The notes beneath the pieces were generated by a model. The model did not search any database, was not told the origin of the DNA, and worked only from the letters and a program-made list of their open reading frames with translations. Made by a program: the position numbers and the translations under genes. Positions 2,236 to 51,090 of a stretch of 64,000 nucleotides of DNA are shown here, piece after piece; within the stretch, counting starts at the first letter, position 1; every line of letters begins with the position of its first letter. Source of the DNA: Candidatus Borrarchaeum weybense (GTDB taxonomy: Archaea; Asgardarchaeota; Sifarchaeia; Borrarchaeales; Borrarchaeaceae); the NCBI GenBank assembly GCA_019057385.1, contig JAHQJS010000005.1:96001-160000 (forward strand). Direction: 5' to 3'.

Positions 2236-3077
2236 CAAATCTCTTGACTGAGACTCAGAAAACTTTGAATAAATATAATATCAAGCTAAGAAAACGAATG
2301 GGCCAAAATTTTCTTGTAAATTCAAATGTGCTTGATAAACAAATTGCTTACGCCAGTTTAAAAAGATCGGACACCGTCTTAGAGATCGGTGCAGGCATTG
2401 GGACATTAACAAGACGCTTAGCAGACTATGCAAAAGAAATAATAGCCGTTGAAAAAGATTCACGCCTTTTAGAAATTTTAACGGAACAATGTGCGAAATA
2501 TGATAACATTACGATTATTCACGCTGACATCCTACAGATAGATATACCTCCCTTCACAAAAGTTGTTTCAAATATCCCTTACTCAATTTCTTCACCTTTG
2601 ACATTCAAATTACTTACTTATGATTTTGAATATGGGATAATAACCTACCAAATTGACTTTGCTGAAAGACTAGTCGCAAAACCTGGTTCTCGTGAATACA
2701 GTCGGCTTTCCGTAACAGCCTATTATCGAGCACATACCAAAATCCTTGAAAACATTTCGCGAACTGCGTTTTATCCGTCACCTAAAGTAGATTCTGCACT
2801 TGTAAAAATCACACCACATCCCCCCCATTTTCGTGTAGACAATGAAAATCTTTTTTATGACGTTGTTCGTGCCCTTTTCGGTCGAAAAAACAGAAAAATA
2901 AAAACAATGCTTGCGATATATTTGGATAAACAAGAGACATCTACATCAAGAAAGCAAATTCTTCAAGAATTGACCCAAGAACTTCCATTTCTTGAAAAGA
3001 GGGTCAGGCAGATGTCACCAGAAGAAATCGGTCTTTTAACCAACCACCTCCAGGGAACGATAAAAACAGCAGCGTAA
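2232..3077 (+). CDS. ksgA: 16S rRNA adenine dimethyltransferase KsgA/Dim1
   Basis: GQNFL, VLEIGAGIGTLT, VSNIPYSIS, YSRLSV, FYPSPKVDS. Confidence 0.96.
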   Translation: MTNLLTETQKTLNKYNIKLRKRMGQNFLVNSNVLDKQIAYASLKRSDTVLEIGAGIGTLTRRLADYAKEIIAVEKDSRLLEILTEQCAKYDNITIIHADILQIDIPPFTKVVSNIPYSISSPLTFKLLTYDFEYGIITYQIDFAERLVAKPGSREYSRLSVTAYYRAHTKILENISRTAFYPSPKVDSALVKITPHPPHFRVDNENLFYDVVRALFGRKNRKIKTMLAIYLDKQETSTSRKQILQELTQELPFLEKRVRQMSPEEIGLLTNHLQGTIKTAA

Positions 3078-3093
3078 AGGAGGAACATCCAAG

Positions 3094-3705
3094 ATAAAGA
3101 CATTTAAATTCAATAACCTTGTCTTTCAAATTTTTAATGAAGTATATGAGCCTGCAGATGATTCATTGTTATTGGCAGACTATTTAAAGCACGAAATTCG
3201 CTCAAAAGATATAATCCTTGACTTAGGAACTGGCTGTGGAATCCAAGCTATCACAGCAACTACTTTAAAGGACGATGTGCGGGTTATTGCGACAGATATT
3301 AACCCTATTGCAGTAAAAAACGCAGTGAAAAACGCAAAACTAAACAACGTAAATGAAAGAATAGAATTTATTCATGGTGATTTATTTCAGCCATTTCTTA
3401 AAAAAGAGTATTTCAATCTAATAATTTTTAATCCACCTTACCTTCCTCTCCCACTACCCGATCAAAAAAAACAAGATTGGATTTCACTTGCTTGGGCTCA
3501 AGGAATAGGTTCTGATATAATTCAGAGATTTCTTCTAGAATCGAATTCATATCTTAAGGAAAATGGGCGCATCCTACTGATTATTTCTACATTATCAAAT
3601 ATTGATTTTAAAAGATGGGAGGGTACATATTCCTTTGAAAGACTATCAGAGCGTGCCTTTTTCTTTGAAAAGTTAATTCTATTAAAGATAACGAAAGTTC
3701 GTTAA
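3094..3705 (+). CDS. HemK2/N6AMT1-like (release factor) methyltransferase; probable ATA start
   Basis: DLGTGCG and FNPPY motifs; family motif VYEPADDSLLL lies in frame upstream of the ORF-track TTG (3166); AGGAGG at 3078-3083 precedes ATA at 3094. Confidence 0.85.
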   Translation: MKTFKFNNLVFQIFNEVYEPADDSLLLADYLKHEIRSKDIILDLGTGCGIQAITATTLKDDVRVIATDINPIAVKNAVKNAKLNNVNERIEFIHGDLFQPFLKKEYFNLIIFNPPYLPLPLPDQKKQDWISLAWAQGIGSDIIQRFLLESNSYLKENGRILLIISTLSNIDFKRWEGTYSFERLSERAFFFEKLILLKITKVR

Positions 3706-20340: not shown

Positions 20341-21699
20341 TTATACTTTTGGCAAGATTTCGAGCGATTTATCGATTTGTTCCTGTGGCATTTCATAGTC
20401 AACAAGGTTTCCAGCGAGATATTCTTCATATCCTTTTAAATCAAAATGACCGTGTCCGCTGTAATTAAAAGCAATCACTTTTTCTTCACCAGTTTTTTTA
20501 CATTTTTGTGCTTCTTTGATCACTGCAACGATAGCATGATTGGTTTCTGGCGCTGGAACGATCCCTTCTGTCTTTGCAAAGATCACTCCTGCTTCAAAGG
20601 TTTCTATTTGATGGTATGCAACGGACTCCAAGATACCTTCTTTTTGCAGTAGACATAAACTGGGGGCGTCTCCGTGGTATCTTAATCCTCCAGAATGAAT
20701 TGGTGGTGGGACAAACTCGTGCCCAAGAGTGTACATTTTCACTATAGGAGCTAACTTACCAGTATCTCCGTAATCGTAGGCATAAGGTGCTCTTGTCAAT
20801 GTAGGAACCGCCTTCGGCTCAACAGCAATAAATCGGATATCTTTTCCTTTCAATTTGTCTGGAACAAACGGATAAAAGAACCCTGCAAAATTACTGCCGC
20901 CTCCAACGCAGCCAAGCATCATATCAGGATATTCCCCAATCTCTTCAAACTGTTTTTTAACCTCCTGACCTACAATTGTTTGATGTAGCAGGACGTGATT
21001 GAGCACGCTTCCTAGACTGTACTTAATTTTATCGTCGTTTAGAGCATCCTCCACAGCTTCAGATATTGCTAAACCAAGGCTTCCAGGATGGTCAGGATTT
21101 TCCTTTAAAACACTTCGTCCGACCTCTGTATTATTAGACGGACTTCGGAAAACTTCGCTGCCATAAGTCTGCATTAATACGCGTCTATACGGTTTCTGGT
21201 CGTAACTGACACCAACCATATATACACGGCATTTTATGTCAAAAAGGGCACATGCGAGGGAGAGCGCACTTCCCCATTGACCTGCACCTGTTTCAGTTGT
21301 AATTTGTTCTACACCTTCTTTCATTGCAAAATACGCTTGGGCGATAGCTGTGTTGGGCTTATGACTTCCCGTAGGGCTGAGATCCTCTCGCTTATAGTAG
21401 ATCTTAGCTGGCGTATCCAAATACTCCTCAAGCCGTTTTGCCCGATATAGTGGGCTTGGTCTACCTAATCGCCTGTAAGCCTCTTGTAACTCTTCAGGAA
21501 TAGGAATGTATCTTTCTGGGGACATCTCCTGTTGTAGAAGTGCAACAGGGAACAAAGGCATTAAATCAGGAGGACCACAAGGTTCTTTCGTTACAGGGTG
21601 TAACGGAGGAGGGAGAGGGGCTGGTAGGTCGGCTAATACATTATACCATTGAGTTGGTAACTCATCAAGGTTTAAGACAACTTTTACACCATCATACAT
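20341..21699 (-). CDS. trpB2: Tryptophan synthase beta chain, TrpB2 type
   Basis: [17 protein letters not shown] (PLP Lys), [28 protein letters not shown]. Confidence 0.96.
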
Positions 21700-21742
21700 T
21701 TTCAATCACCTCAAATTTTTTAGATTTCTATTTTTATTTTTC

Positions 21743-44916: not shown

Positions 44917-46233
44917 TCAAATCTCGATAGTTTCTCCAACACGAGGAACAAATGTTTCAACACCCTCCTTTAGCTCCTGAACTCTTTTACTGAAAGCAAA
45001 CGCCTTTTCTTTCTCGCCATGTACCACTATAACCCTTTTCAGGCCTTCTATTTCTGAAAGAATGCGCATGAGCCCGGCCTGATCGGCATGTGCACTAAAT
45101 TCAAAATGGTGTACTTTCGCGTTTATTTCTACTTTTTCACCGTCGATTTCTAATACACGTTCGCCTTCTTGAAGTTGACGACCTCGCGTTCCTTTTACCA
45201 TGTATCCAGTAAGACAAATGAGGTTTCGTTCATCATCTCCTAACTCTTTGAGATAACGTATTACCGGACCGCCTTGTACCATCCCGCTTGTTGTGATAAC
45301 AATAGCAGGTTGTTTTGTATTAATAAACTCGTCACGTTCAGAGGACGTTACTTCATGAAACATCTCAGATTCCCATGGTGACCTCTTAGTATATCTTATT
45401 TGTCGGCGAATTTCAGGACGAAGATATAGCCAATATAACTTGTAGATTTCGTTCATTTTTCTTATCATTCCATCGATATAAACTGGCACTTCAGGTAAGA
45501 ATCCGCTTCTCATGTAGGCCTCGATGGAGAGCATCGCCTGTTGAGCTCGTCCTGCCGCAAAAGCTGGAATAATGACTTTTCCTTGCCTCTTTAATGTGTT
45601 CTTAACAGCGAGTGCAAATTCTTTTTCGGTCTTTTTAAGATTGGGTAAACGATCATTAGGGTCACCATAAGTAGATTCAATAATCACAGTCTCTGTTGGT
45701 AAGGTGCTATCAGCTTGGTGAAGTGTTCTTGTATGGCGCGCGTTTACATCACCTGTGTAAAGAACAGTGTGCCCATCTATTTCTAGCCAAACCATGGCGC
45801 TCCCTAGAAGATGCCCTGAACGATATAAGATCATTTGTGCATTCGATACATCTAAAGGTACTCTGAATCGGACATCAACGGCATGAGATCTCATAGCTTG
45901 AACATCTTCTGCCTCATATGGACTTTCTTCGTGAGCTCTAGAAAGACGAAGATAATCGAAAACTAGCAGTTCAGTCATATCTTGTGTCACAGGCGTGGCG
46001 TAAATCGGACATTTGTATCGTTTTATGAGTGCAGGAGCGTGCCCAGAGTGATCTAAATGTGCATGTGTTAAGATCACAGCGTCTGGAGTATCAGGTAGCG
46101 GAAGAGGGTATCTATTTTCATCAGAAGCACCTAAATGCACACCAGCATCAAGAACTAACTTTGTGTCTTTGCTTTCCACAAATACACACGATCTACCGAC
46201 CTCTTGCGCTCCTCCTTGAAATGTAATGTTCAT
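44917..46233 (-). CDS. MBL/beta-CASP ribonuclease (aCPSF2-like, no KH domains)
   Basis: GGAQEVGRSC, THAHLDHSG, GHLLGS, YTGD, ESTYG, FSAHAD, VHGE. Confidence 0.92.
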   Translation of the reverse strand: MNITFQGGAQEVGRSCVFVESKDTKLVLDAGVHLGASDENRYPLPLPDTPDAVILTHAHLDHSGHAPALIKRYKCPIYATPVTQDMTELLVFDYLRLSRAHEESPYEAEDVQAMRSHAVDVRFRVPLDVSNAQMILYRSGHLLGSAMVWLEIDGHTVLYTGDVNARHTRTLHQADSTLPTETVIIESTYGDPNDRLPNLKKTEKEFALAVKNTLKRQGKVIIPAFAAGRAQQAMLSIEAYMRSGFLPEVPVYIDGMIRKMNEIYKLYWLYLRPEIRRQIRYTKRSPWESEMFHEVTSSERDEFINTKQPAIVITTSGMVQGGPVIRYLKELGDDERNLICLTGYMVKGTRGRQLQEGERVLEIDGEKVEINAKVHHFEFSAHADQAGLMRILSEIEGLKRVIVVHGEKEKAFAFSKRVQELKEGVETFVPRVGETIEI

Positions 46234-46393
46234 TAAATCAACAGCCTCCATTCTTACTTTAAATGGCTTCATATAAAACAGTAATGAGTTAAATGAAAAA
46301 GTCAATCACTTTTATTTGTCAACTATAATATAATTATTAAAGGGATATTTAGAAAAAAAGATTTAGATAAAAATCGACTTATCTAAGAAACCG

Positions 46394-47140
46394 TTAGTGT
46401 AGGGCATCTGCAACATCTTGAAAAAGGTATGCGTTAGATTCTTTAAGTAAGACTTTAGGAACAAGTAGATATCGATCTACCTGGAGACAAAGATCTATAT
46501 CCCTTTCATATCCCAAGCGCTTCAATTTAGCGCCTTCTGCGGAATTCTTTATTAAATTGTTAATATTGTCTTTATTTCTTTCATAACTTTCTGATGCTAA
46601 TTTCGCATCTTCATCAAGAATGCATCCCTTCTCACCCAATTTAGAAGCTATAAGTCCTGCAGCGAGCCAATCTTCGCATTCCTCTATTGGACCACATGCT
46701 ATAAGTACTATATCCAAATTCGTTTGTTTTGCTATGGTATATGCTGTTGCAGATACAGCAGAGGCGTTTAAAAAACCACCAACTAGTATATGCTCTGAAT
46801 TTCCCACACTGTGTATTATTCGAGTTCCGTTGGAAGTCGTAAGGACGAGAAATTTTTGAGAAACTGAATTTTCTAAGATTTCAATGGGTGAATTGCCATG
46901 ATCAAATCCTGACACCTTTTTATAATCCCGTTCTCCAGCTAAGATACAGTTTTCAATGCGATCTTTCAAAAGCCATACTGTATCAAGATCTGGAGCTGCA
47001 TATACTCCTTTTGCTCCTGCCGCTAAACTACAGGTAATCATAGTACCTGCACGGATAACATCTACAATAATATACACAGCGTTTTTCTTTTCCAATTCAA
47101 TAGAATTTTCCATTCCGAATAAATGAACTTCAGGTTTCAT
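46394..47140 (-). CDS. comB: ComB-family (2-phosphosulfolactate phosphatase-like) phosphatase
   Basis: DVIRAGT, AGER, GNSP, TTSNGT, NASAV, ED; AGGTGA SD before MKPEV. Confidence 0.88.
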   Translation of the reverse strand: MKPEVHLFGMENSIELEKKNAVYIIVDVIRAGTMITCSLAAGAKGVYAAPDLDTVWLLKDRIENCILAGERDYKKVSGFDHGNSPIEILENSVSQKFLVLTTSNGTRIIHSVGNSEHILVGGFLNASAVSATAYTIAKQTNLDIVLIACGPIEECEDWLAAGLIASKLGEKGCILDEDAKLASESYERNKDNINNLIKNSAEGAKLKRLGYERDIDLCLQVDRYLLVPKVLLKESNAYLFQDVADALH

Positions 47141-47173
47141 TAAACGATTCACCTTTTTGTTTTATAAAATCAC

Positions 47174-47180
47174 AAAAAAA
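47174..47180 (-). terminator. T7 tract between Ser leader and comB
   Basis: 35 nt after the leader stop. Confidence 0.45.
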
Positions 47181-47215
47181 GCGGATACTAAACGTGAATT
47201 TAATTGTGATTAACA

Positions 47216-47302
47216 CTACGACGACGAGGAGGACGAGGATGACGACAAACTACTTAAAACTAATAATGTTGAAGAAATAGAAGTCAACCTCTTTGTTATC
47301 AT
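47216..47302 (-). CDS. Poly-Ser leader peptide (MITKRLTSISSTLLVLSSLSSSSSSSSS)
   Basis: 28 aa, 14 Ser, 9 consecutive TCN codons before TAG; TATA (TTTTATAA) at ~47343-47351. Confidence 0.7.
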   Translation of the reverse strand: MITKRLTSISSTLLVLSSLSSSSSSSSS

Positions 47303-47609
47303 ATTATCACATCATCTTGTAAGGCAAGTACTACTGTCATCTTTTATAAAATTTTCTAAAGATACCTTTTCGAGATTTTATCTTAAAATATGATTTGCTG
47401 GAACACTTATTGCTACTATGTGGTATTAAAACAACATATTTTCTTCTTAAAGACACTCTTAGTATCATAAAAGTGTTTTATTTAAATAAAGCTTCAAAAA
47501 GTAATCTTTAAGAGCATTAAATAAACACCAAAATAAATTGAGGGGTAAATAGTGGATCCAGGCAGACCTTGGCTATGGTGAGCCTTACAAAAATTGCTTT
47601 ATTGGAAAC

Positions 47610-48743
<1,134 letters not shown>

Positions 48744-48866
48744 TTATAGTTTTTTTATCTTCCTAAAGATATGCATTCCACATTATCAGATATATGTCAA
48801 TAGAAGAGTGATACAATCATTTTTGCTTTAAGAGAATTTCTATTTCAAATGCTAATTAGAATTGGG

Positions 48867-49292
48867 TTAAATATCCAGAACAAACTGTAAGCGAACATGA
48901 GACTCTTTTTTTTGTATTTGCATCTCAGCATAGGTGATTGCCTTAACTTCTGTTCCTTGTGAATGTTTATCTATATCGAACGCTTCACCCCAGACGTCTC
49001 CTGTAAGATACCATTCAGCATTTTTCAGTTCTATTTTGTGCACTTTAAACCTTGAAAATACTAAGCCATCCGCGTCAAACAAGACAATCAATGCTTCTAG
49101 CCATTCATATAAAAGAGCAAAAAGATCCTCGCCAGTTACAGTAACTGATCTCTTCTCTTTCGCCTCTACCTTTGATATTTCGGTCATAATCTCTGTTAGC
49201 GCTTGACCAGCGACTTCAAAAGTTTCTTCAAGTGAACTTCCGAGTACTTCAAATTTTACATCAGCAGTATGATCCAATATATTATAAGTCAT
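48867..49292 (-). CDS. Archease
   Basis: LDHTADV, EVKAITY, C-terminal LDI; divergent from rtcB. Confidence 0.95.
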   Translation of the reverse strand: MTYNILDHTADVKFEVLGSSLEETFEVAGQALTEIMTEISKVEAKEKRSVTVTGEDLFALLYEWLEALIVLFDADGLVFSRFKVHKIELKNAEWYLTGDVWGEAFDIDKHSQGTEVKAITYAEMQIQKKESHVRLQFVLDI

Positions 49293-49632
49293 AACAACAC
49301 CTTGAGGAACTTCACTTCTTTAGGCGTATAATTTACGCATTTATCATTCTTGTTTGGTATACATCCCCTATTTTTTCTTCTTCGACATTTAATAACTCAT
49401 TCAATTTCAACTGAAATTCATAAGTAATTATATACGTTTCACTCAGATGTGCTTTGAACCTTATAGGGACTCTAGCCATCAACAGAATGCTTATATAAGG
49501 ACACGCTTCTCATAAAAAAGAATGTTTGGTATATGAACAGTTCTCCCCAGAAAATTGGAGGAATCAAATAAAGAGTTTCTTAATACTTGAATAAGATTTA
49601 TTGTAATTATTGAATTTACGCGAGGTTATGAA

Positions 49633-51090
49633 ATGCCATATCAAGGTCCATTAAACCAGATTTCGGAAAACATTTACGAAATTCCTATCAAACATAAACA
49701 AGGGATGAGAGTTCCAGGAAGAGTTTATGCTAGTCCTGAACTTCTAGAAAAAATGAAGGGTGATCTTACACTTACACAGTGTGTAAATGTAGCGCATCTA
49801 CCAGGGATACAAAAGTTTGCGATTACCTTGCCCGATGGTCATCAGGGCTACGGCTTTCCTATTGGTGGTGTGGGTGCTACTGACGTAAATGAAGGAGGCG
49901 TTATTTCCCCTGGAGGCGTTGGCTATGATATTAACTGTGGTGTACGTCTACTTTGGACGACTCTTGAAAGAAAGGAGGTCGAGCCTAAGTTAGATGACCT
50001 CTTATCAACACTCTTTAGGACAGTCCCCTCTGGTGTTGGGAGGACGGGACAAATACGTTTTTCAAAAGGAGAATTAGATGAGGCATTACTTGGGGGAGTA
50101 AAATGGGCTGTTGAGCAAGGATATGGATGGCGTATAGATGCAAGTCATTGTGAAAGCCAAGGATCTCTTGAACACGCAAATCCTGACAAGATTAGTGAAA
50201 AAGCAAAAAGTCGTGGACAACCTCAATTAGGTACATTAGGTAGTGGAAATCATTTCCTTGAGCTTCAATATGTAGAGAAAATCTATGATGAACGCATAGC
50301 TAAAGCTTTTGGTATAACTAATGAAGGACAAGTCACAGTAATGATTCATACAGGATCACGTGGATTTGGACATCAAGTTTGTTCAGATTATCTTCGTGTT
50401 ATGGAAAATGCAGTGAGAAAGTATAAAATAATGATTCCTGATAGAGAACTGGCATGTGCGCCTGGGACGAGTAGAGAAGGTGAAGATTATTTTGCCGCGA
50501 TGGCATGTGCAGCTAACTTTGCATGGGCAAATAGACAGTTCATCACTCATTGGGTAAGAGAAGGATTTGATAAATGGTATAAAACAGACCCCGACGAACT
50601 TGGACTTCAACTTATTTATGATGTAGCACATAATATTTGCAAACAGGAACGTCATGTCATTGATGGTAAAACAAAATCACTGTTTGTTCATCGAAAAGGT
50701 GCAACACGAGCATTTCCAGCAGGTCACACCGATCTTCCGCAAGATTATAAACCTATTGGCCAGCCAGTAATTCTACCTGGCTCGATGGGTACGGCATCAT
50801 ATCTACTTTGTGGACAAGATACTGCAATGGAATATAGTTTCGGTAGTACTGCACATGGCGCTGGACGAGTTATGAGTAGATATAAGGCAAAAAAGAGATA
50901 TTTCGGAGAGAAAGTTGCTAGTGATTTAAGGCAGAGAGGAATATTTGTATATGCCACAAGTAACAAAGTAATCGCAGAAGAGGCACCAGGGGCATATAAA
51001 GATATTAATCAAGTTGCCAAAGTCTCTAATGACGTAGGGATCGCATCTTTTGTTTGTAAATTACGTCCTATGGGTGTTGTAAAGGGATAA
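49633..51090 (+). CDS. rtcB: tRNA-splicing ligase RtcB
   Basis: PDGHQGYGFPIGG, DINCG, GNHFLE, HTGSRG, HRKGATR, HGAGR. Confidence 0.98.
   Translation: MPYQGPLNQISENIYEIPIKHKQGMRVPGRVYASPELLEKMKGDLTLTQCVNVAHLPGIQKFAITLPDGHQGYGFPIGGVGATDVNEGGVISPGGVGYDINCGVRLLWTTLERKEVEPKLDDLLSTLFRTVPSGVGRTGQIRFSKGELDEALLGGVKWAVEQGYGWRIDASHCESQGSLEHANPDKISEKAKSRGQPQLGTLGSGNHFLELQYVEKIYDERIAKAFGITNEGQVTVMIHTGSRGFGHQVCSDYLRVMENAVRKYKIMIPDRELACAPGTSREGEDYFAAMACAANFAWANRQFITHWVREGFDKWYKTDPDELGLQLIYDVAHNICKQERHVIDGKTKSLFVHRKGATRAFPAGHTDLPQDYKPIGQPVILPGSMGTASYLLCGQDTAMEYSFGSTAHGAGRVMSRYKAKKRYFGEKVASDLRQRGIFVYATSNKVIAEEAPGAYKDINQVAKVSNDVGIASFVCKLRPMGVVKG

Follow-up and report, generated by a model that had tools for sequence, protein, structure and literature searches.

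In Candidatus Borrarchaeum weybense, an Asgard archaeon, the gene of a ComB-like phosphatase is preceded by a very small open reading frame (ORF) that ends in a run of serine codons. We characterised this upstream ORF (uORF) in a window of 64,000 nucleotides (nt; assembly GCA_019057385.1, contig JAHQJS010000005.1, 96,001 to 160,000); all leader features lie on the minus strand and their positions are those within the window. Comparison across the genus suggests that the uORF is a conserved, functional leader that senses serine, a reading that we consider evenly balanced between right and wrong. What would be new here is an archaeal serine-specific leader that needs no hairpin and stands before an orphan enzyme, which we propose with middling confidence. 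Ribosome-mediated leader-peptide control is a textbook mechanism of bacteria. We know of no serine-specific leader peptide in any domain of life, and searching of the full-text literature returned no description of an archaeal leader-peptide attenuator.

The uORF comprises 28 codons, 14 of them for serine, and its final nine codons all encode serine (Table 1). An initial annotation had described this frame together with a TATA box, a tract of seven T (T7) 35 nt past the uORF stop, a Shine-Dalgarno (SD) sequence and the start codon of the ComB-like gene (comB hereafter), and all of these elements were found as described. The partial SD of the uORF, GTGAT, is complementary to the 16S rRNA 3' end GGAUCACCUCCU, and genome-wide GTGAT peaks at about -8 before starts. 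SD cores at -18 to -4 precede 43% of the genes of this genome versus 8.5% at a control position. The enrichment is strongest at -14 to -8, so that the GGTG of the comB SD is slightly far from its start codon but within the observed range. GTG 47152, which serves as start in the ORF list, is probably not the true start of comB. No class of leaderless starts was visible in the genome-wide survey of start signals. TCG and TCC are the two rarest serine codons of the genome (8.2% and 8.5% of serine codons, respectively); such rare codons would suit a sensor of tRNA charging, although a (TCG)n repeat would produce the same picture.

The serine leader has few equals in the 4.18-Mb genome. All six reading frames of the intergenic sequence were searched for ORFs that have a start codon, contain at least five identical residues in a row and lie within a few hundred bases of a gene on the same strand. 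Only two intergenic ORFs combine a C-terminal run of at least seven residues abutting the stop with a same-strand gene at most 200 nt away: the serine leader and an ORF that ends in (CGA)7 (R7 ORF, C7:791280-791414), 197 nt before lysX/argX. The product of the latter gene scores as LysX (TIGR02144, 322 bits, above cut-off). It is because the scan yields just this one other uORF of the kind that we are inclined to read the serine ORF as a serine-sensing leader. The next Ser-richest intergenic small ORFs reach six Ser in ten codons compared to nine in ten in the leader and look like noise. The window also holds a Trp-rich case: the TrpB2 gene is preceded by an ORF of 17 codons, four of them for Trp, behind which come T6 and a strong SD. 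The R7 and the Trp-rich ORF thus share organism and build with the serine leader (TATA, short ORF, cognate codons, T-run, SD, gene); while the downstream pathway matches the codons in the arginine and tryptophan cases, for serine the match is only predicted. The likeness to the Trp leader that the initial annotation had pointed out stands as regards the build of the ORF before TrpB2, whereas the hairpin plus T7 does not amount to an attenuator of the Trp type. A further 17-codon ORF, MPSVWCLDRRPRRRSNG (C8:50752-50805), has five Arg in ten codons and lies 206 nt before a second LysX/ArgX-like gene, judged as such by N-terminal resemblance; it may be a second arginine leader beside (CGA)7.

Conservation within the genus

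We read the leader in six lineages, represented by Borrarchaeum metagenome-assembled genomes, whose ComB-like proteins are 78-96% identical (96, 92, 89 and 78%). The homologue clusters P0003 and P0005-P0010 (76-88% identical) lie outside this comparison at the DNA level, and a contig search with P0008 returned already known loci only. The order trpS, leader, comB, beta-CASP nuclease is intact in all six lineages. ATG, GTGAT, promoter, T7 and comB SD are likewise present in 6/6, and in each of them the frame from the conserved ATG remains open through a run of 6-11 serine codons, mostly TCG and always in frame, up to a stop 0-2 codons past the run. The leader peptide reads MITKRLTSISSTLLVLSSLSSSSSSSSS in the source genome, ends in SSLSSPSLSSSSSWC in L003, in STFFVLSSLSSSSSSSSSC in L048 and in STLFVLSSLSSSSSSSSSSSC in L036, and reads MILKRMTSISSIL[IL]VLSSSSSSSSC in L005 and L038. 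A terminal Cys is retained in five of the six lineages, and the TAG stop occurs in the source genome only, its relatives having TCG or TGG at the aligned position. On this alignment, the ancestral leader would have ended with Cys-stop, the TAG of the source genome coming two codons earlier. The genome also encodes a PylS C-terminal domain (C7:142596-143312, 281 bits, cut-off 178) about 430 nt from a tRNA-Pyl(CUA) predicted by aragorn (C7:143743-143811), which makes it probable that some UAG codons are read as pyrrolysine; TAG nevertheless closes 23% of its long ORFs. If the TAG of the uORF were read through, the ORF would be two codons longer (Cys, TAA) and reach the stop of the relatives.

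The four-fold degenerate sites of comB served as neutral yardstick, with an identity of 59% to the most distant lineage (L005). The N-terminal 57 nt of the uORF reach 81% in the same comparison, the promoter block 76% and the stretch from stop to T7 71%; the element therefore appears to be constrained and not merely young. The 25-nt promoter block is 100, 96 and 76% identical in L003, L036 and L005, respectively. T7 is invariant across the lineages and lies 35-41 nt beyond the stop in the alignment; runs of at least seven T occur genome-wide at 0.44 per kb and strand. By manual count, seven of the 14 variable sites of the uORF are third codon positions, and the replacements are conservative, which argues weakly for constraint on the peptide rather than on the nucleotides. 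The motif TTCACGTNTAGTATCNNCTTTTTTT, searched in 185,579 species genomes, matched only the comB leaders of the genus and is therefore not a regulon motif. Conservation of Ser-rich uORFs, which the initial annotation had suggested as a check, was thus found in six lineages of the genus but did not extend to about 20 distant ComB homologues or to the SerA-like gene.

Possible modes of control and alternative explanations

If the 28-codon ORF is translated, it would report the supply of charged seryl-tRNA, chiefly of the isoacceptor that reads the rare UCG, and would in this way set the expression of the ComB-like gene. Shortage of seryl-tRNA would stall the ribosome in the serine run, about 10-30 nt upstream of its normal termination point, and the shifted position of the ribosome could alter the fate of the downstream leader. 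This might happen by two routes. T7 could act as an oligo-T site of termination or pausing that requires no hairpin and may depend on a closely following ribosome. A ribosome and a polymerase in contact span roughly as much as the 35-41 nt between stop and T tract. Alternatively, the SD of comB would be hidden by a weak helix in which a candidate anti-SD, ATTCAC, pairs with GTGAAT in the 3' part of this SD, U-tract and A-tract (CTTTTT:AAAAAG) prolonging the pairing. Whether starvation turns expression on or off is not readable from the sequence. Both ribosome-position-coupled oligo-T termination and SD masking are open to test.

The anti-SD:SD helix pairs in 98% of alignment cells, covering all lineages, and includes one compensatory change from A-U to G-C; ATTCAC:GTGAAT is paired at 6/6 positions in all five distinct sequences, and T7 also forms half of the adjoining U:A helix. 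The anti-SD lies 18-22 nt past the stop, beyond the reach of a ribosome stalled in the serine run, and the sole candidate competitor of the duplex is an 8-bp stem, AATCACAA/TTGTGATT. This stem had been put forward in the initial annotation as part of an attenuator. Its arms are present in the source genome, yet conservation across the lineages is lacking. The stem fails in L004 and L005; a mismatch interrupts it in the G002 lineage, it does not form in the most distant lineage, and its energy by lineage is -5.3, about zero or positive. T7 lies inside the stem, not behind it, and transcription reaches the 3' arm only after T7, so the stem cannot be an antiterminator for this site. Within the leader, no pair of terminator and antiterminator is evident and no hairpin directly precedes T7. 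What remains of the serine control originally proposed is thus a conserved, selectively maintained uORF with its own promoter and SD before a ComB-like gene, but not the attenuator hairpin. We also considered pairing of GAYGAYG in the 5' untranslated region with (UCG)n; its U/C variants keep the pairing in whole-leader folds, yet these folds are no better than shuffles, and we rejected it.

The layout resembles the enterobacterial attenuators (trpL, hisL, pheL, thrL, leuL), which likewise have, in the 5' leader, a short ORF whose codons for one amino acid cluster near the stop, with a U-run and the regulated gene behind it. The ribosome would be the presumed sensor in the serine leader too. 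In contrast to these systems, the serine leader has an archaeal host, concerns serine and has no Rfam match (at E up to 1, positions 46300-49700 gave two chance microRNA matches and no leader family). It also lacks a GC-rich terminator hairpin and evident mutually exclusive hairpins, and the gene behind it is not a recognised serine-pathway gene. A homopolymer-like codon run in a tiny uORF has been described in the poly-Cys leaderless short ORFs of mycobacteria ('Cys ribulon', Canestrari et al., 10.1101/834739), where ribosomes that halt within the run act on a duplex masking the next gene's ribosome-binding site. That system is bacterial and its short ORFs are leaderless, whereas the ORF studied here is archaeal and has an SD. 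In addition, the candidate anti-SD:SD duplex is weak and lies where a stalled ribosome cannot cover it directly, and only one gene carries a serine leader, unlike the poly-Cys regulon. Together with the arginine and tryptophan leader ORFs of the same Asgard genome, the locus supports the view that this lineage has ribosome-read amino-acid gauges, although archaeal terminators differ from bacterial ones.

Several results weigh against a serine-sensing leader. Neither the whole leader nor its 3' part folds better than shuffled sequence (z from -0.35 to +1.2), the 8-bp stem pairs in 92% of alignment cells with zero compensatory changes, and the anti-SD:SD pairing, with its single covarying pair, is matched by 109 of 500 shuffles. 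With its U:A extension, the latter helix is also weak (-2 to -3 kcal/mol at 37 °C and -7 to -8.5 at 15 °C). The element is limited to one genus: ComB identities fall from 96% to 76% and then to at most 42% with none in between, and no serine uORF precedes about 20 distant ComB homologues. A serine regulon is not apparent, as the intergenic scan returned no second serine leader in the genome and the SerA-like gene has none. Since the run is a near-perfect (TCG)n in the relatives, slippage alone explains its length changes in multiples of three. The sole metatranscriptome run shares 5% of words and yielded one contig of 234 nt, which lies within trpS; it covers no part of the leader and so speaks neither for nor against it. 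Finally, comB may have its own near-leaderless promoter, in which case T7 would end a separate small transcript, and the match between the serine codons and the pathway of the downstream enzyme is a prediction, not an observation.

The possible second promoter leads to another explanation, namely that the uORF is an independent micro-protein gene with its own promoter, ended by T7, and that the near-leaderless ComB-like gene is not under its control. The product would have 25-31 residues, starting with a basic N-terminus, continuing as a semi-hydrophobic segment rich in Ser, Thr and Leu, and ending in a poly-Ser tail that usually closes with Cys. We find both this arrangement and such a product rather improbable. 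In their favour, the uORF has its own BRE/TATA and SD as well as the invariant T7 behind its stop, and an 8-mer resembling a TATA box, about 28 to 21 nt before the comB ATG, has a T/A-rich counterpart at a similar place in L005 (manual counts). The 19 N-terminal residues change conservatively (L/F, L/M, L/I, T/I, T/L), with half of the variable sites at third positions, and the terminal Cys is kept in all lineages but one. However, the tail varies between 6 and 11 residues, the C-terminus differs (SSS, SWC or SSC before the stop) and the source genome has lost the Cys through its TAG. The comB SD, moreover, persists in every lineage and even in L005, whose adjoining TATA-like 8-mer is degenerate; it is thus more conserved than the putative internal TATA and speaks for a leadered mRNA, and leaderless starts form no visible class in the genome. 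Homologues of the peptide or partner genes were not found, and the same ORF build precedes cognate amino-acid genes in the source genome.

Slippage raises the further question of whether the ORF lacks a function and arose by chance from an imperfect (TCG)n microsatellite, in intergenic DNA that is young and has diverged slowly. The relatives, with nearly pure (TCG)8-10 of varying length, agree with this view, so that the initial statement that the run is not a simple microsatellite applies to the source genome but not to them; all comparisons also fall within one genus, and the genome contains another intergenic trinucleotide repeat (C4:1118281-1118496). On the other hand, the unique flanks (promoter, SD, ATG, N-terminal codons, TTCACGTnTAGTATC block and T7) are 71-81% identical compared to 59% at four-fold sites. 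The frame from ATG to stop is conserved in every lineage read, with the stop close behind the run, and the four departures from TCG in the source genome are all synonymous third-position changes. We therefore consider a functionless repeat unlikely. Still far less probable is a precursor peptide whose poly-Ser(-Cys) core is modified after translation, for example by phosphorylation of Ser, and on which the ComB-fold phosphatase acts. A Ser-rich peptide gene does lie directly upstream of a phosphatase gene, but no kinase, protease, transporter or maturation gene was found nearby, the conserved neighbours being trpS and the beta-CASP nuclease; the length of the core is unstable, and enzymes of the ComB family are known as small-molecule phosphatases only.

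The ComB-like enzyme and serine metabolism

The protein behind the leader shares a full-length PF04029 domain (190 bits over residues 18-234) with ComB, the 2-phosphosulfolactate phosphatase. Its relatives in the Protein Data Bank (2yyv, 2z0j and 1vr0) are all annotated as 'probable' only. Unlike ComB proper, it scores below the equivalog cut-offs: TIGR00298 gives 144.4 bits against a cut-off of 175, and every other NCBIfam ComB equivalog model is below its cut-off, too. Identity to Asgard ComB homologues that adjoin ComA is 24-35%. In a phylogenetic tree, the clade with the serine leader forms a long, isolated branch and is separate from three others, which comprise the ComA-linked sequences, the sequences of family f12 and the source genome's own paralogue. 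ComA makes 2-phosphosulfolactate, the substrate of ComB. In the Asgard families f8 and f18, ComA directly adjoins the ComB homologue, whereas ComA (PF02679) had no match in 5/5 genomes of the genus (this one, 100% complete, and four others; two 100% complete). Because ComA was not found in the genus, in contrast to its adjacency to ComB in other Asgard families, a role of the ComB-like protein in coenzyme M or sulfolactate metabolism appears unlikely, in agreement with the doubt expressed in the initial annotation. A NifS cysteine desulfurase adjoins the ComB homologue of a sister family (L006); reading this neighbour as a serine aminotransferase was rejected.

By analogy with the leaders that precede cognate genes, the ComB-like phosphatase would probably work in serine metabolism, and dephosphorylation of O-phosphoserine is the simplest guess for its reaction. 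A SerB equivalog, whose presence the initial annotation had proposed to check, was not found in the genome. The best match is a HAD-IB protein of 222 amino acids (aa) with 94 bits against a cut-off of 144, which more likely serves a sugar-phosphate pathway because its gene lies 8 nt behind a GT4 glycosyltransferase gene. A short SerA-like dehydrogenase (346 bits), class-V aminotransferases and serine hydroxymethyltransferase are present. The genome also encodes O-phosphoseryl-tRNA synthetase (SepRS; C3:137548-139092, 510 bits, above cut-off), and Cys-tRNA is therefore probably formed via O-phosphoserine. O-phosphoserine would be an obligatory metabolite here, the step from it to serine having no assigned enzyme. 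None of the 17-27 tRNAs reported by aragorn is a tRNA-Ser, presumably since the tRNA genes are intron-rich. The window further contains a TrpB2 gene (20341-21705), and enzymes of the TrpB2 family reportedly use O-phosphoserine.

That the ComB-like protein is a phosphoserine phosphatase is a guess from genomic context, and we regard it as doubtful. A 2- or 3-phosphoglycerate phosphatase for the non-phosphorylated route to serine would be chemically at least as close for the ComB fold, because ComB enzymes act on 2-phospho-hydroxy acids. SerB is above cut-off in only 16 of 61 sampled Asgard genomes, so this gap is common, and families with ComA-linked ComB also have SerB; the phyletic pattern of SerB neither supports nor refutes its displacement by the ComB-like enzyme. 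In the literature on SerB replacements we found DUF1015 and inositol monophosphatase-like types but no ComB-fold phosphoserine phosphatase. Phosphoserine phosphatase is among the steps most often missing from reconstructions of amino-acid pathways, and serB is missing in 8% of prototrophs (GapMind 2026, PMC13759103). ComA-less ComB-fold proteins are widespread and unassigned, and the leader offers a hypothesis for one such orphan enzyme. The full proposal is that, in an archaeon, a serine gauge read by the ribosome governs a new phosphatase of the ComB fold for phosphoserine (or phosphoglycerate). This enzyme would act where pathways branch at O-phosphoserine, in an organism that has to retain this metabolite for SepRS-dependent synthesis of Cys-tRNA. 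The proposal is speculative and we would not expect it to hold in all its parts. If it were true, it would be the first serine leader peptide, an instance of archaeal leader-peptide control and a new family of enzymes for the serB step, which is often missing. In that case, the ancestral ending (Ser)n-Cys-stop would monitor both of the tRNA pools that depend on O-phosphoserine.

Two loci checked in the f12 clade bear on another branch of the family. In both (L009:638-2021 and L013:1447-2823), a CDP-alcohol phosphatidyltransferase gene whose best match is archaetidylinositol phosphate synthase (145 bits, below the cut-off of 180) is followed immediately, on the same strand, by a ComA-less ComB homologue. 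To our knowledge, no gene has been assigned to the archaetidylinositol-phosphate phosphatase of archaeal lipid synthesis. Because it adjoins a synthase-like gene and this step lacks an assigned gene, the f12 ComB clade is a candidate for this enzyme.

Features of the locus and its surroundings

The spacer between trpS and the ComB-like gene measures 469 nt, and the leader elements occupy its promoter-distal part (Table 1). Downstream of comB follows the gene of a 462-aa beta-CASP/RMMBL nuclease, which matches the C-terminal 460 positions of the aCPSF1 model (412 bits, below cut-off), the first approximately 170 positions remaining unmatched. Between the two genes, comB is followed by T5 and T7 runs, and by eye the nuclease gene apparently has its own TATA-like box.

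Table 1. Positions of the leader elements and neighbouring genes within the window.
Feature	Position	Strand	Remarks
trpS, tryptophan--tRNA ligase	47610-48656	-	upstream neighbour
Promoter block used for comparison	47362-47338	-	25 nt
BRE (transcription factor B recognition element)/TATA of the leader: purine-rich TAGAAAA, then TTTTATAAAA	47358-47342 (TTTTATAAAA 47351-47342)	-	read directly
GTGAT, partial SD	47310-47306	-	starts at -8 from the uORF ATG; all lineages
Leader ORF, 28 codons and TAG, MITKRLTSISSTLLVLSSLSSSSSSSSS	47302-47216 (ATG 47302, TAG 47218-47216)	-
Run of nine Ser codons (5 TCG, 3 TCC, 1 TCA)	47245-47219	-	presumed sensing tract
TGT TAA behind TAG	47215-47210	-	Cys codon and stop that close the ORF in relatives; from the alignment
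AATCACAA, 5' arm of the 8-bp stem	47211-47204	-	starts 5 nt past TAG
Block TTCACGTTTAGTATCCGC		-	between the 5' stem arm and T7
ATTCAC, candidate anti-SD	47199-47194	-	within invariant block TTCACGTnTAGTATC
T7 tract	47180-47174	-	candidate archaeal intrinsic termination/pause site; 35 nt past TAG
TTGTGATT, 3' arm of the 8-bp stem	47175-47168	-
TATA-like TTTTATAAAA, second copy	47169-47160	-	before the comB SD
AAAAAG, A-tract of the U:A helix	47158-47153	-
SD of the ComB-like gene, AAGGTGAA	47155-47148	-	GGTG at -14
GTGAAT, partner of ATTCAC	47152-47147	-	3' part of the comB SD
ComB-family (PF04029) phosphatase gene, 248 aa	46394-47140	-	ATG 47140; Pfam 190 bits
beta-CASP/RMMBL nuclease gene	44917-46305	-	downstream gene

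A few other frames in the region deserve mention. The initial annotation had stated that the other two frames have no start codon, which holds within the body of the uORF but not upstream of it, where ATG 47340, ATG 47315/47312, GTG 47310 and TTG 47327 occur. The mini-ORF from ATG 47340 to TGA 47299, which overlaps the uORF ATG, starts within the promoter, and its ATG is lost in L005; it was rejected. On the plus strand, an acidic frame (DDEEDEDDD) lacks a start and a GTG-initiated poly-Thr frame (47194-47280) lacks both an SD and a downstream gene; we regard both as by-products of the repeat. A Ser-rich frame upstream of the SerA-like gene (C6:350858) turned out to be the antisense of an opposite-strand acidic ORF of 91 aa and is no leader. 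Elsewhere in the genome, an intergenic GAC/GTC trinucleotide microsatellite of about 12-14 units (C4:1118183-1118496) encodes, according to the frame, poly-Ser, poly-Arg, poly-Asp or poly-Thr; it shows that repeats of this kind come about in the genome with no obvious leader context.

The trpS-proximal half of the spacer (47363-47600, minus strand) is also conserved in the genus (over 47519-47440, the most distant lineage is 68% identical) and contains the near-invariant CCAAGGTCTGCCTGGATCCACTA, which has no Rfam match. In L003, whose ComB-like protein is 96% identical, about 480 extra bases (approximately 2720-3190) separate trpS from the leader promoter, and extra bases are likewise found at this place in L035, L040 and L049. 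The L003 insert starts exactly at the conserved block containing CACCATAGCCAAGGTCTGCCTGGATCC and is possibly a small mobile element.

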